Part shown: positions 2,821-7,790 of the stretch, in pieces
How positions within the stretch are numbered: position 1 is the stretch's first letter
Layout: the number at the start of each line of letters is the position of its first letter
Assembly: GCF_006345805.1 (NCBI RefSeq)
Contig: NW_021828465.1
Span: 1-8,344 of the forward strand
DNA length: 8,344 bases
Source of the DNA: Octopus sinensis
Taxonomy: Eukaryota
Direction: 5' to 3'
The notes under the pieces: generated by a model
The model's database searches: none
Seen by the model: the letters and a program-made list of their open reading frames with translations, nothing else
What the model was told of the DNA's origin: nothing
Translations under genes and position numbers: made by a program

Positions 2821-2981
2821 CTGACTGAAGAGGGGCAGAAATAGCCCGACGCCAGACAAGTATGTTGGTCCCATTGCTAGAATGTGGCAAGAGCCTGATC
2901 CCTTACACGCAATATATCGGATGCTGCTATGCCTCGTTAACCAGCTGGAGGAGATGTCCTCATGGGGTTATAAAAATCGCA
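2821..2981 (+). repeat. 161-bp direct repeat, copy 1 (starts with a degenerate hammerhead-like motif)
   Basis: Ungapped alignment to 4234-4394 gives 147/161 identical by manual count. Confidence 0.95.
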
Positions 2982-3019
2982 TACCAGTGTGGTTTCGGGT
3001 TATTTCTGTCTCTCTCTAG
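2979..3019 (-). ncRNA. Degenerate minimal hammerhead-ribozyme-like motif (Penelope/retrozyme type), probably inactive
   Basis: The minus strand reads CTAGAGA-GAGAC-AGAAATA-ACCC-GAAA-CCACACTGG-TA-TGC. It aligns without gaps to the plus-strand copies CTGAAGA-GGGGC-AGAAATA-GCCC-GACG-CCAGACTGG-CA-TGT. It keeps GAAA, stem III and a GUA triplet but has a mutated CUGANGA box. Confidence 0.5.
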
Positions 3020-3120
3020 AACCGAACATGTCGTCTGTAAGAGATGGCAGTAGTTCTCCCCACCTTGCAATATATATATAAATTCAAGCGACACAGTCGC
3101 TGATTTTAGAAGATCCAATG

Positions 3121-4058
3121 CTAGTTCTAAAATTTCTCTGAGAGATCATCGCAATAGTTGTTCTAGCAAGTAAAATTCGTAACTACTCTAGTTCTAAAAT
3201 TTCTCTGAGAGATCATCGCAATAGTTGTACTAGCAAGTAAAATTCGTAACTACTCTAGTTCTAAAATTTCTCTGAGAGATCATCGCAATAGTTGTACTAG
3301 CAAGTAAAATTCGTAACTACTCTAGTTCTAAAATTTCTCTGAGAGATCATCGCAATAGTTGTACTAGCAAATAAAGTTCGTAACTACTCTAGTACTAAAA
3401 TTTCTCTGAGAGATCATCGCAATAGTTGTTCTAGCAAGTAAAATTCGTAACTACTCTAGTTCTAAAATTTCTCTGAGAGATCATCGCAATAGTTGTACTA
3501 GCAAATAAAGTTCGTAACTACTCTAGTTCTAAAATTTCTCTGAGAGATCATCGCAATAGTTGTTCTAGCAAGTAAAATTCGTAACTACTCTAGTTCTAAA
3601 ATTTCTCTGAGAGATCATCGCAATAGTTGTACTAGCAAATAAAGTTCGTAACTACTCTAGTACTAAAATTTCTCTGAGAGATCATCGCAACAGTTGTTCT
3701 AGCAAGTAAAATTCGTAACTACTCTAGTTCTAAAATTTCTCTGAGAGATCATCGCAATAGTTGTACTAGCAAATAAAGTTCGTAACTACTCTAGTTCTAA
3801 AATTTCCCTGAGAGATCATCGCAATAGTTGTTCTAGCAAGTAAAATTCGTAACTACTCTAGTTCTAAAATTTCTCTGAGAGATCATCGCAATAGTTGTTC
3901 TAGCAACTAAAGTTCATAACTACTCTAGTTCTAAAATTTCTCTGAGAGATCATCGCAATTGTTGTACTAGCAACTAAAGTTCATAACTACTCTAGTTCTA
4001 AAATTTCTCTGAGAGATCATCGCACTAGTTGTACTAGCAACTAAAGTTCGTAACTACT
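3121..4058. repeat. Minisatellite/satellite array: exactly 14 tandem copies of a 67-bp unit
   Basis: Unit ctagttctaaaatttctctgagagatcatcgcaatagttgtWctagcaaVtaaaRttcgtaactact starts at 3121, 3188, 3255, 3322, 3389, 3456, 3523, 3590, 3657, 3724, 3791, 3858, 3925 and 3992. There are no indels, only a few substitutions per unit. Confidence 0.99.
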
Positions 4059-4076
4059 TCAACATGGCTGTCTGTT

Positions 4077-4408
4077 CGAGCGGAATTTACTGCGATTTTT
4101 TAATCCCAAGAAGACATCTCCTCTAGCTGGTTAACAATGCACAGCTGCATCCAACATATTTGGAGCAGGGGGGAAAAAAACCTTACAACCTTCTAGCGAC
4201 GGAACCAGCATACCACTCTGGTTAGGGCTGTTTCTGACTGAAGAGGGGCAGAAATAGCCCGACGCCAGACTGGCATGTTGGTCCCGTTGCTAGAATGTGG
4301 AAAGAGTCTGTTCCCCTACTAGCAATATATCGGGTGCAGCTATGCATCGTTAACCAGCTGGAGGAGATGTCCTCATGGGGTTAAAAAAATCGCAGTAAAT
4401 TCCGCTCG
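4077..4408. repeat. ~330-bp imperfect palindrome (head-to-head inverted copies of one repeat family)
   Basis: 4077-4236 is the reverse complement of 4249-4408 (roughly 80% by eye, higher in the outer half), with a 12-nt loop actgaagagggg at 4237-4248. Confidence 0.93.
4234..4394 (+). repeat. 161-bp direct repeat, copy 2 (hammerhead-like motif at 4238-4278)
   Basis: 147/161 identical to 2821-2981. It also forms the right arm of the 4077-4408 palindrome. Confidence 0.95.
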
Positions 4409-4828
4409 GCATATCAGAGTGAAACATGCCAATAATTGGCTTGACAGGATCAGGAAAAGCAGACGATTAAGTAATCCATTACCGGAAAGCATCGATGAAG
4501 GAAGATCACTGTTGCTAGCTAATCCGCAATTGCAAATGTTTCGGGAAGTATCCAGCGATGAATGGAAGTTTAAGCGTGACGGAAAAAAACCCACATTAAA
4601 TACAGACGAATGAGCTATCCGGTATTGCAGCAATTGTTCCATTAGGATATTTATTTGGCCGTAAGATTAATACAATTACAGAATTTAGATTGTGCATTAA
4701 GCTAGGTAATTCATTTTGTTGATAATCTGTTGAGTAATTAAGAAATCGTTACTCACGGGTTTACCTCACTGCCTGGTGAATTGGAGGTTTGTAATGTACT
4801 ACACACGTACACACACACAGAGTCAAAC

Positions 4829-5066
4829 GTATCTGTTTCTTTACTACCCACAAGGGGCTAAGCATAGAGGGGACAAACAAGGACAGACAAGGGCATTAAG
4901 TCGATTACATCGACCCCAGTGCGTAACTGGTACTTAATTTATCGACTCGGAAAGGATGAAAGGCAATGTCGACCTCGGCCGAATTTGAACTCAGAACGTA
5001 GCGGCAGACGAAATACGGCTACGCGTTTCGCCCGGCGTGCTAACGGTTCTGCCAGCTTGCCGCCTT
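4829..5066 (-). mobile_element. tRNA-derived SINE, family 2, with target-site duplication
   Basis: The minus strand starts aggcggcaagctggcagaaccgttagc and has a B-box-like GAGTTCAAATTC (4981-4992). Its central gtcgacattgcctttcatcctttccgagtcgataaattaagtaccag block resembles a conserved central domain of metazoan SINEs. It is flanked by acacagagtcaaac (4815-4828) and acacacagtcaaac (5068-5081), 13/14 identical. Confidence 0.85.
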
Positions 5067-5085
5067 AACACACAGTCAAACAATA

Positions 5086-5345
5086 GGCGTAGGCATGGCT
5101 GTGTGGTAAGAAGTTTACTTCCCAACCACATGATTCCGGGTTCAGACCCACTGCGTGACACTTTGGGCAGACCAGAGCCTTGTAAGTGGATTTGATGGAC
5201 GGAAATTGAAAGAAGCCCGTCGTATATTCATATATTTATATATGTATTTATAATGTGGGTGTTTTTGTGTCTGTGTTTATCCCTCATCGGCGTTTGACAA
5301 CCGATGTAAGTGTTTTTACGTCCCCGGCGCACTAACAATTCTGCA
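5086..5345 (+). mobile_element. tRNA-derived SINE, family 1, diverged, internally deleted and 3'-truncated copy
   Basis: Colinear with 2383-2655 (tggctgtgtggtaag...ggttcagacccactgcgtg...gaaagaagccc...tgacaaccgatg...gtcccc). It lacks about 25 bp after ttgggc and lacks the tail. Confidence 0.85.
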
Positions 5346-5631
5346 TTAGAATATTAATCACAGAACGATAAGCTTTAGAAACATCGGTGCATTACGTAAG
5401 AATTTGTCCTAGAAAGTGAGGATTTGGTTATGAAGAAAGTGACAGACCCGAATCGCAAAATGTTTGATAATAACATCGATAGGGGTTACATGCTGCCCTT
5501 TCAACAAGTTTTAATGTTTTACTCTTCCACTTACAGAGTGTACATAAAACTTGTATGTTAGCCAGTCTCTTTCTTAGTATTAAAATCCAAGCTTCTCCAG
5601 ATTATGTCTTAGATATTTAATATATACATAT

Positions 5632-5908
5632 ATCACCGTGACCAGGCTATCAGATGTTGCTACACATCGCTGGTCACAATGCGCTTCGCATTGTTTTAGC
5701 CTTCAAATGACGCCACCCCGCTGGCTAAGTGAGCAGGCCAACAGAAGAAAGAGTGAGAGAAATTTGTGGCGAAAGAGTACAGCAAGCCTCGTGGAGCTTT
5801 AAGTGTTTTCGCTCAATAAACACTCACAAAGCCCAGTCTGGGAATTGAAATCGCGATCCTACGACCGCGAGTCCGCTGCCCTAACCACTGGGCCATTGCG
5901 CCTCCACA
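5632..5908 (-). mobile_element. tRNA-derived SINE, family 3, tail type A
   Basis: The minus strand starts tgtggaggcgcaatggcccagtggttagggcagcggactcgcgg (A box TGGCCCAGTGG, degenerate B box GATTTCAATTCCC). Its first ~165 nt match 7415-7589, and it ends in a TA-rich tail. Confidence 0.85.
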
Positions 5909-5923
5909 TATACATACATACAC

Positions 5924-6044: not shown

Positions 6045-6131
6045 TATGTATATATATGCATACATACACACACACGTACACACACACTCACCCACATACA
6101 CACAGACACATGCACACTTACATATATATAT
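5909..6131. repeat. Compound (TA)n/(TG)n/(CA)n microsatellite
   Basis: Direct inspection. Confidence 0.93.
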
Positions 6132-6133
6132 TA

Positions 6134-7005
6134 CATGGAAAAATGCGAGCAAGAGTAATAATATTCTTAAGATTATAAACCTGGAAAATTACAGGACAAT
6201 TTATCACACTTGGAGAAATCCAGGACATCTTATTGCATCTGGTAAAGTGGAGAACAAGAAAATTTTTACCTAAAATATTGCAGCTAAGGATAAAATTTCA
6301 AATAAAATATTTAGATTTAGAAAATATTAGCTTTTATTAAGACTAAAAAAATATTACAAGCTGTTACTTCTATTTGTTATTACTTGTTACTTCTATTAGA
6401 AATTAAAAATAACTCAAAATATTTTGCACTTTAAGAAAATTCATTATTTTAATTATTAATTAATAATTGGAAATTTGGAAATAGGTCATAAAAATAATAG
6501 TAATACATAATTAGTACAATAACTAGTATAATACAAAAATTAGTTATATATTACAGTAAAATCTACCTATAACAACAAATTCACAGTAAAATTTGCTTGA
6601 GTTATTGCCTAAGTTATTGCCAAGTTTTCACATTTTTAGTCTTGACCCAATGCCTATTTTTTACATAATGAACTTGCCTACCATACATACTAGTCTACTT
6701 TGCATAAAACTTTAGCTATATTGATATTTCTGTCTCACATTTTTAAAGTATTCTAGTGTGTCAATATTTCAACAAAATGATGGTACTTTTTTGGATTATA
6801 ATATTACTTTGTAAATTAAAATCAAATGATTGTTAATATTCAGATTTTGCCTTAGCAGCAATATTTAAAGTAAAAATCTACATGTTCTGTACGTTACCAG
6901 ATAAAATAACTTATCCTGAAGTTTTCCAAGTGTAATAATTTGTCCTGTACTTTTCCAGATTTATAATCGTAAGAATATTATTTCTCTTGCTCGCATTTTC
7001 CCATG
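6134..7005. mobile_element. MITE-like non-autonomous DNA transposon with long terminal inverted repeats, TA-flanked (Tc1/mariner-like)
   Basis: About 6134-6300 is the reverse complement of about 6838-7005, with the first 66 bp 61/66 identical. The ends read TA|CATGG...CCATG|TA. The interior is very AT-rich and non-coding. Confidence 0.8.
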
Positions 7006-7415
7006 TAATCCATGTTTCCAGGCTATGCTATTATTCTAATTAATTATGTGTCAAATGTGTCAATTAGCGGTGTCGCAACTTTTTTTATACAAATTTTTGT
7101 TCCTTGGGAGGAAAACTATGAAATTCTTCACGGTTTCTTCTATCGTTGAAGCTAAGATAAATATATTTTGCTTTTAAAATGAAAAAGTTATTGAGATCTT
7201 AACTTGATTGGTGGCGTTACTTACTTTCCTATAATATTGATGTAAACTTTTTTCTACTGGATCAAATCTGAATTTTTTTATACCAAAATGTAGCTAGGAA
7301 CTAGTACTCTTCAAACATGATAACGGTTCTCCATTTGGTTAAGAACTGAATAAGCAACACGCTCTGAAATATGCAGCGTGTGAGTAAATTGCGGCCTTAA
7401 GAATATTATTCAACT

Positions 7416-7790
7416 GTGGAGGCGCAATGGCCCAGGGGTTAGGGCAGCGGACTCGCGGTTTCGATTCCCAGACTGGGCGTTGCGAGTATTTATTGAGCGA
7501 AAACACCTAAAGCTCCACGAAGCTCCGGCAGGGGATGGTGGTGATCCCTGCTGTACTCTTTCACCACAACTTTCTCTCACTCTTACTTCCTGTTTCTGTT
7601 GTACCTTGTATTTCAAAGGGCCGGCCTTGTCACTCTCTGTGTCACGCTGAGTATCCCCGAGAACTACGTTAAGGGTACACGTGTCAGTGGAGTGCTCAGC
7701 CACTTACACGTTAATTTCACGAGCAGGCTGTTCCGTTGATTAGGATCAACCGGAACCCTCGTCGTCGTAACCGACGGAGTGCTTCCATTC
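7416..7790 (+). mobile_element. tRNA-derived SINE, family 3, tail type B, full length with an 11-bp TSD
   Basis: A-box-like TGGCCCAGGGG and B-box-like GGTTTCGATTCCC. A perfect direct repeat ATTATTCAACT lies at 7405-7415 and 7791-7801. The head is shared with 5744-5908 (-). Confidence 0.9.

Follow-up and report, generated by a model that had tools for sequence, protein, structure and literature searches.

Structure of the locus

The window analysed here comprises the first 8,344 nucleotides of contig NW_021828465.1 of Octopus sinensis. Between positions 2824 and 4408 it contains pieces of one repeat: a minus-strand unit with a 14 x 67-bp array inside it, and an arm on the plus strand at either side (Table 1). 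Read from 4236 down to 2979, the minus unit runs from monomer position 330 across the predicted cleavage site and through the array (positions 151-217, fourteen times) to position 3.

Table 1. Parts of the locus at 2824-4408 of the window, and LINE loci elsewhere in the genome. Monomer position 1 is the first base after the predicted cleavage site.
Record	Positions	Strand	Feature	Details
Window	2821-2823		3-nt microhomology with 4234-4236	outer junction of the duplicate
Window	2824-2981	+	left arm, monomer 318 to 118	2821-2981 is 91% identical to 4234-4394
Window	2824-2981	+	left-arm hammerhead, broken	GACG for GAAA, stem III broken, 5' strand of stem I missing
Window	2979-2981		3-nt microhomology common to left arm and minus unit	tail-to-tail junction
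Window	2979-3025	-	downstream hammerhead copy, broken	core CUAGAGA at 3019-3013, GUA at 2984-2982
Window	3026-3120	-	ordinary internal repeat part, monomer 218 to ~311	includes the 5' strand of the long stem closing the ribozyme
Window	3121-4058	-	14 x 67-bp array, formed in place from monomer 151-217	single-locus minisatellite, alternating unit variants
Window	4059-4236	-	monomer 330 to 150	21 differences in 176 nt to the family majority
Window	4237-4408	+	right arm, monomer 318 to 132	head-to-head with the minus unit at 4236/4237
Other loci	L016:26-1473; L028:958-1471; L103; L119; L122; L140; L211-L240		LINE loci	

A preliminary description of this DNA had singled out the minus-strand unit as bounded by two ribozyme-like motifs. 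The strings quoted for these motifs are found where it placed them (4236-4208 and 3008-2979, minus strand), the GUA triplets end at 4211 and 2982, which is 1229 nt apart or 358 nt with the array collapsed to one unit, and the array itself has 14.0 units of 67 bp with 95% matches. The two motifs are indeed homologous parts of one repeat family, but the quoted strings correspond only to the 3' half of a hammerhead, and two working ribozymes do not bound the 1229-nt unit: both are broken. Nor does the unit stand free, since this repeat is present on the plus strand at both of its sides (2824-2981 and 4237-4408).

At the upstream end of the minus unit the hammerhead is cut off at the inverted junction: the 5' strand of stem I, CUGANGA and most of the 5' strand of stem II are missing, and UAA stands for GAAA. 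In the downstream copy (family-model match at 2952-3055, 50.5 bits) GAAA and stem III are still intact, CUGAAGA has become CUAGAGA, stem II is mismatched and the 3' strand of stem I is lost. The hammerhead of the right arm has GACG for GAAA and GCA for GUH and lacks the 5' strand of stem I. Active retrozymes are defined by two consecutive intact hammerheads (10.64898/2026.07.22.740005); here, none of the four ribozyme copies is intact. An Rfam search of the window returned no ribozyme family at E <= 10, only microsatellite-driven matches of the miRNA type.

A dispersed 356-nt repeat family with a predicted hammerhead

Three DNA searches of the same genome (2.72 Gb) gave 1306, 236 and 407 first-look candidates, of which 40 each were scored; the first search yielded 104 matches among the 40 scored of 1306 candidates, and the copy number of the family is to be read as a lower bound. 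The majority sequence of the family, built from 130 fragments with the window as seed, repeats every 356 nt; a few T are missing from it near position 221. It contains a complete hammerhead of type I: a stem I of 6 bp, CUGANGA, a stem II of 4 bp with one bulge, GAAA, a stem III of 3-4 bp, and either GUC or GUA. Stem I is extended by a long interrupted helix, with an internal loop there and a loop II of 7 nt. When 41 copies were aligned (40 of the 43 full-length matches and one window copy), the core bases were kept in 32-41 copies per position and the whole core in 14, and 85% of the paired cells could pair, compared to 32-48% with slid partners. Covariation within the family did not exceed that of shuffles, 193 of 500 of which reach the score; this is what one would expect of copies in neutral decay.

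The majority monomer, folded as a circle, has a predicted energy of -142.8 kcal/mol (-97.4 +/- 5.8 kcal/mol for 60 shuffles, z -7.9). The longest stop-free frames in a dimer of the majority are 39 aa (sense) and 67 aa (antisense), and the repeat is thus non-coding. By its sequence-level features, namely the type I hammerhead, the head-to-tail monomer of 356 nt, the absence of coding capacity and the strong predicted self-pairing, the family is a non-LTR retrozyme with a predicted hammerhead. We found no published description of the family; it may have an entry in the supplement of PMC7229834 or in Repbase.

The divergence of its copies marks the family as old: median identity to the majority is 87%, and the 13 exact genome-wide matches to a 30-base core pattern lie in copies with 81-93% identity to the majority. 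The preliminary description had left undecided whether 3020-4076 belongs to the element. It does, because the 67-mer, 3009-3120 and the hammerhead co-occur in a fixed order at many loci; this is the opposite of the counter-evidence named there, a 67-mer and a segment 3020-3120 found at a single locus only, or elsewhere without the hammerhead. The suggestion of a retrozyme-like, non-autonomous and Penelope-linked element of about 356-358 nt is likewise supported.

Insertion marks of the family resemble those of Penelope-like elements

Insertion ends were mapped in 59 non-redundant loci with 113 segments, after exclusion of 15 window records and overlapping duplicates from the first 89. Of the 3' ends, 69/113 fall at two internal points of the monomer (37 at positions 160-178 and 32 at 213-231), and 0/113 lie 8 nt or less from the cleavage site (positions 348 and 16 come closest). 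These counts are biased, since the loci are the top BLAST matches to three window queries; copies with their end at the cleavage site are out of reach for the first query but not for the third. The 5' ends are scattered. Most ends in the two 3' clusters adjoin a TA/CA microsatellite or AT-rich DNA. We found 30 head-to-head junctions, in 29 of the 59 loci, and no tail-to-tail junction. Longer than one monomer are 23 of the 113 segments; five cross two cleavage sites and the longest has 660 nt. Such copies read past the 3'-end sites into the next ribozyme, with no ORF in between.

Partial tandems, inverted 5'-truncated copies, a tail of 30-40 bp and a bias for microsatellites are described for Penelope elements (PMC8557442), and a Penelope RT is described to start downstream of the hammerhead, at two sites within the RNA and on AT-rich targets, with no requirement for ribozyme cleavage (PMC11167929). 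Because the insertion marks match these published features, we infer that the copies of the family were likely inserted by the enzymes of a Penelope-like element. Multimeric transcripts of active copies, by analogy to known retrozymes, would have cleaved themselves to monomers and circles; a Penelope-type protein with RT and GIY-YIG domains would have nicked AT-rich DNA, and reverse transcription would have begun at internal RNA sites (monomer ~170 and 221-228) rather than at the ribozyme cut. The products would have been cDNAs of one to two monomers with a head-to-head inverted copy, in the window at 4236/4237. The right arm is accordingly likely a Penelope-type, inverted and 5'-truncated copy joined head-to-head to the minus unit. 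Within the window this junction is the only Penelope mark that remains, both original 3' ends being lost. After insertion, the window copy decayed by 13-15% and every ribozyme was lost.

A different view of the same marks is that the repeat is the pLTR of an autonomous Penelope element and the loci are its 5'-truncated tail-end copies: all insertion marks are Penelope-like, and Penelope pLTRs carry hammerheads, of a minimal form (PMC4209133). We consider this improbable. The sequence closes on itself with its period of 356 nt and no ORF, and about a fifth of the segments (the 23 mentioned above) exceed this length; the only coding DNA joined to the repeat is a LINE inserted with target duplications (see below), and the helices have canonical sizes (stem I 6 bp, stem II 4 bp) and not those of the minimal pLTR form.

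The genome has frames for putative Penelope enzymes: there are 147 GIY-YIG matches among 150 scored of 5029 candidates, and frames of 775-883 codons with both RT and GIY-YIG are present. An autonomous element sharing sequence with the monomer was found neither in the 30 of 147 GIY-YIG loci that were fetched nor in the six that were extended, an RT and GIY-YIG ORF joined to the repeat was found neither in the window nor in the 59 family loci, and the family model had no match in 19 further Penelope loci. Several candidates for a partner were rejected. Family-like matches next to three GIY-YIG ORFs either had been inserted separately or were in antisense orientation, the hammerhead near an intact Penelope ORF at locus L180 belongs to a sister retrozyme inserted there separately, and DNA shared upstream of three loci, considered as a Penelope body, proved to be a LINE.

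Young Penelope-like families with RT and GIY-YIG frames of 775-883 codons are found at L175, L178, L179, L180 and L186-L210; they have a further open frame upstream and a tandem arrangement. A search with the core pattern did not find a hammerhead core near the ends of these families (L175, L178-L180, L186-L210).

A probable local origin of the 67-bp array and the left arm

All 13 of 13 genome matches to the unit junction of the array (with at most one mismatch) lie in contig NW_021828465.1. Tandem pairs of the 67-mer are absent from 56 other loci and an internal array is absent from 72 locus records; elsewhere the monomer contains the 67-mer only once, and its best match outside the array has 91% identity over one unit. 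Other loci with the same flanks, proposed in the preliminary description as a check, do exist, but in none of these 56 loci is the 67-mer in tandem. The array majority differs from the family at 9/67 positions, similar to the flanks of the array. Its units differ from each other by a mean of 2.8/67, at only nine variable columns and with alternating variants, and all 14 have eight derived sites in common, at most four of which occur in any of 70 family copies. Because the array majority is as diverged as the flanks while the units are nearly alike and share these derived sites, the array likely grew at the DNA level after the copy had decayed: positions 151-217 would have been duplicated and then expanded to 14 units by slippage or unequal exchange. 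The description of the 67-mer as hairpin-rich did not hold, as the array folds no better than shuffles (DNA folding, z-scores +0.34, +1.02 and +1.10). Contigs of runs X1, X2, X3 and X7 cross the unit junction, with fewer than 31 letters on one side, too few to be regarded as bridging; in runs X5 and X6 the array interior is hardly covered, and no joint spans the array.

The two plus-strand arms share 15 derived changes, of which at most four are found in any of 101 other copies. The loss of GAAA is among them, and one of its two changes is present in 0/66 other copies. The arms differ from each other at 13/157 sites, compared to differences from the majority of 20/157 for the right arm and 46/315 for the minus unit; the duplication is therefore younger than the unit. 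As far as the order of local events can be told from one locus, this suggests that the minus unit and the right arm were inserted together, head-to-head, and that the left arm is a later local copy. Through a template switch, with 3 nt of microhomology at both ends, a copy of 4234-4394 would have taken the place of the original 3' end of this unit. That the minus unit ends 3 nt after GUA is not supported as a trace of RNA cleavage; this boundary cannot be fixed, as the left arm has the same 3 nt, and the end is best read as a probable breakpoint of DNA repair. The junction at 2981 is bridged by contigs of all four of four runs from three studies (X1 may be the source sample) and is thus not an assembly error. 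A tail-to-tail geometry such as that at 2979-2981 has no parallel in the other 59 loci.

A separate case of DNA-level duplication at a palindrome was observed at L037:714-1638, where a whole inverted retrozyme insertion lies in a tandem duplicate with a period of 433.

We consider it very probable that the stretch from 2824 to 4408 is a decayed and rearranged copy of a dispersed, non-coding retrozyme repeat that was later altered in place, a judgement that covers the joint model of a non-LTR retrozyme, a likely Penelope-like insertion and a putative later amplification of 67 bp and duplication of the arm.

The cargo model of the preliminary description is by comparison very improbable. Under this model, two hammerheads would have released the 1229-nt unit, which would have retrotransposed through RNA and taken the array along, and so have served to spread the satellite. 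The unit does run from cleavage site to cleavage site, its left boundary falls exactly at GUA if the three shared bases are assigned to the left arm, and 2821-2981 and 4234-4394 can be read as a target duplication of 161 bp. However, this target duplication is ruled out by divergence, the arm duplication being younger than the unit and its tail-to-tail geometry without parallel; both bounding ribozymes are broken, and none of the 113 mapped family ends lies near a cleavage site. Judged from the sequence, the 67-bp array is not cargo spread by RNA, since its junction is confined to one contig, there is no tandem 67-mer at the 56 other loci, its units share derived sites and all four ribozymes are broken. 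With this the idea of a satellite vehicle fails. What the locus holds is a dead and rearranged repeat, of less importance than the family.

A shade less probable still is that the first duplication of the 67-mer arose during insertion, when a telomerase-like Penelope RT copied the same template again, and that the units were homogenised afterwards. The unit (151-217) spans the initiation site at ~170 together with the greater part of the tail from one site to the other, and the array junction is without microhomology; yet the unit stops 4-11 nt before the second site, in a copy that continues past it, the 14 units combine their eight shared derived sites with the differences given above, and nothing of the kind is seen at other loci, old or young. 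A reading of the palindrome at 4077-4408 (332 nt, 78%, from self-comparison of the window) as a MITE or a fold-back DNA transposon, with terminal inverted repeats, can practically be dismissed: similar palindromes do occur at other loci, but each locus has a different centre (the breakpoints of the 30 junctions are scattered), the arms derive from a single tandem monomer, there are many non-palindromic copies and no target duplication is seen at the outer flanks.

A young sister retrozyme family

At L180:5452-5772 we found a sister family with a period of about 352 nt, which is also present at L181-L185, L196, L197, L199, L200, L207 and L208; its copies are 95-99% alike, with one older piece at 80%. 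It is collinear with the retrozyme family of the window at 56% identity, and both sister monomers that were folded have a complete predicted hammerhead. In the comparison between the families, 21 of 37 doubly changed pairs still pair, compared to 14.0 +/- 2.8 by shuffle (16 of 2000 shuffles reach this); 38/117 pairs are broken, on a rough alignment. Hairpins conserved in both families lie at monomer positions ~55-145. Of the 18 sister segments (11 loci), 17 end at two points homologous to the 3' ends of the first family, with a query that favours the outer end, and head-to-head junctions are present in 6 of the 11 loci.

Previously, the enzyme that moves animal retrozymes has been argued from co-occurrence (PMC7229834) and from homology (10.64898/2026.07.22.740005). 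An old and a young non-coding family with Penelope tail and inversion marks at homologous positions point to the enzyme as well as the RNA element read by it.

A LINE next to hammerhead repeats

At monomer positions 291-310, four loci (L016, L028, L103 and L140) have an inserted LINE with RVT_1 and zf-RVT domains, which we take to be Tx1-like from its motifs. The insertions have target duplications of about 14-21 nt and differing 5' truncations. An exact core of the pattern CUGANGA...GAAA...UH lies 28-34 nt downstream on the same strand in 10 of 30 LINE 3'-end loci (9 of 29 without the seed), in three distinct repeats, and in none on the other strand. In an earlier, overlapping set, 12/28 loci had cores at 26-34 nt, compared to 64/9914 background windows. 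Other LINE loci show other targets. Further hammerhead repeats beside LINE 3' ends were seen at L104/L105/L114, at L121/L123-L126 and at L112, L119, L122, L213 and L228; at least two of these repeats are distinct from the family of the window. In the literature searched, we found no description of hammerhead repeats as targets of a LINE, although Tx1 elements are known to target satellites and other transposons (PMC4494074).

These observations may form a chain of three tiers, in which Penelope enzymes copy several retrozyme families from two conserved internal starts, never from the ribozyme cut, and at least three unrelated retrozyme families are in turn targeted by the LINE, 26-34 nt upstream of the core; the RNA template would be circular or multimeric and the LINE site fixed. 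This reading is tentative, and our own leaning is slightly against it. If it is true, the RNA choice of the Penelope RT could be tested on the young sister family as an active substrate without coding capacity; this family is the best candidate for RNA tests.

Relation to known elements

The metazoan non-LTR retrozymes described by Cervera and de la Pena (2020, PMC7229834), among them mussel repeats of about 350-390 bp, resemble the octopus family in several respects: they have a non-coding tandem unit in the range of 170-400 nt with one type I hammerhead per unit, are strongly self-paired as a circle (here by prediction) and co-exist with Penelope elements. Unlike these, the family described here is old, its arrays have fewer than two monomers, which is shorter than many published retrozyme multimers, and the copy in the window has an internal minisatellite.

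With endonuclease-positive Penelope-like elements (PMC8557442 and PMC11167929) the family shares 5' truncation, copies in partial tandem, inverted 5' copies joined head-to-head, 3' ends at two fixed points, AT-rich or microsatellite targets and a hammerhead upstream of both ends. It differs from them in having no ORF, a tail of about 46-57 nt instead of 30-40, and a canonical rather than minimal hammerhead.

Li, Clavereau and Pollet (2026, 10.64898/2026.07.22.740005) reach the same conclusion, that retrozymes derive from Penelope elements and are not autonomous. Their study argues from co-occurrence and pLTR homology, mostly in vertebrates, and the words 'tail', 'head-to-head', 'initiation' and 'octopus' are absent from the main text; the evidence from insertion ends presented here is support of a different kind. 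For minisatellites born inside transposable elements (same source), an internal piece is likewise amplified in tandem; unlike satellites of transposon origin in general, the array described here has one locus, 14 units and no sign of spread.

Other features of the window

Dispersed SINE-like repeats are found at 2385-2775, 4825-5070, 5085-5330, 5630-5910 and 7415-7790 of the window, with 85% identity between 2387-2635 and 5096-5326; the part from 2700 to 2772 has very high depth in all four runs. Two MITE-like inverted repeats of 165 bp (6130-6294 and 6845-7009) are 84% complementary, lie 550 nt apart and are unrelated to the retrozyme copy. The segment 1980-2375, located between a microsatellite and a SINE, is GC-richer and has short frames (76 aa at 2008-2238); it could be an exon or a transposon remnant.
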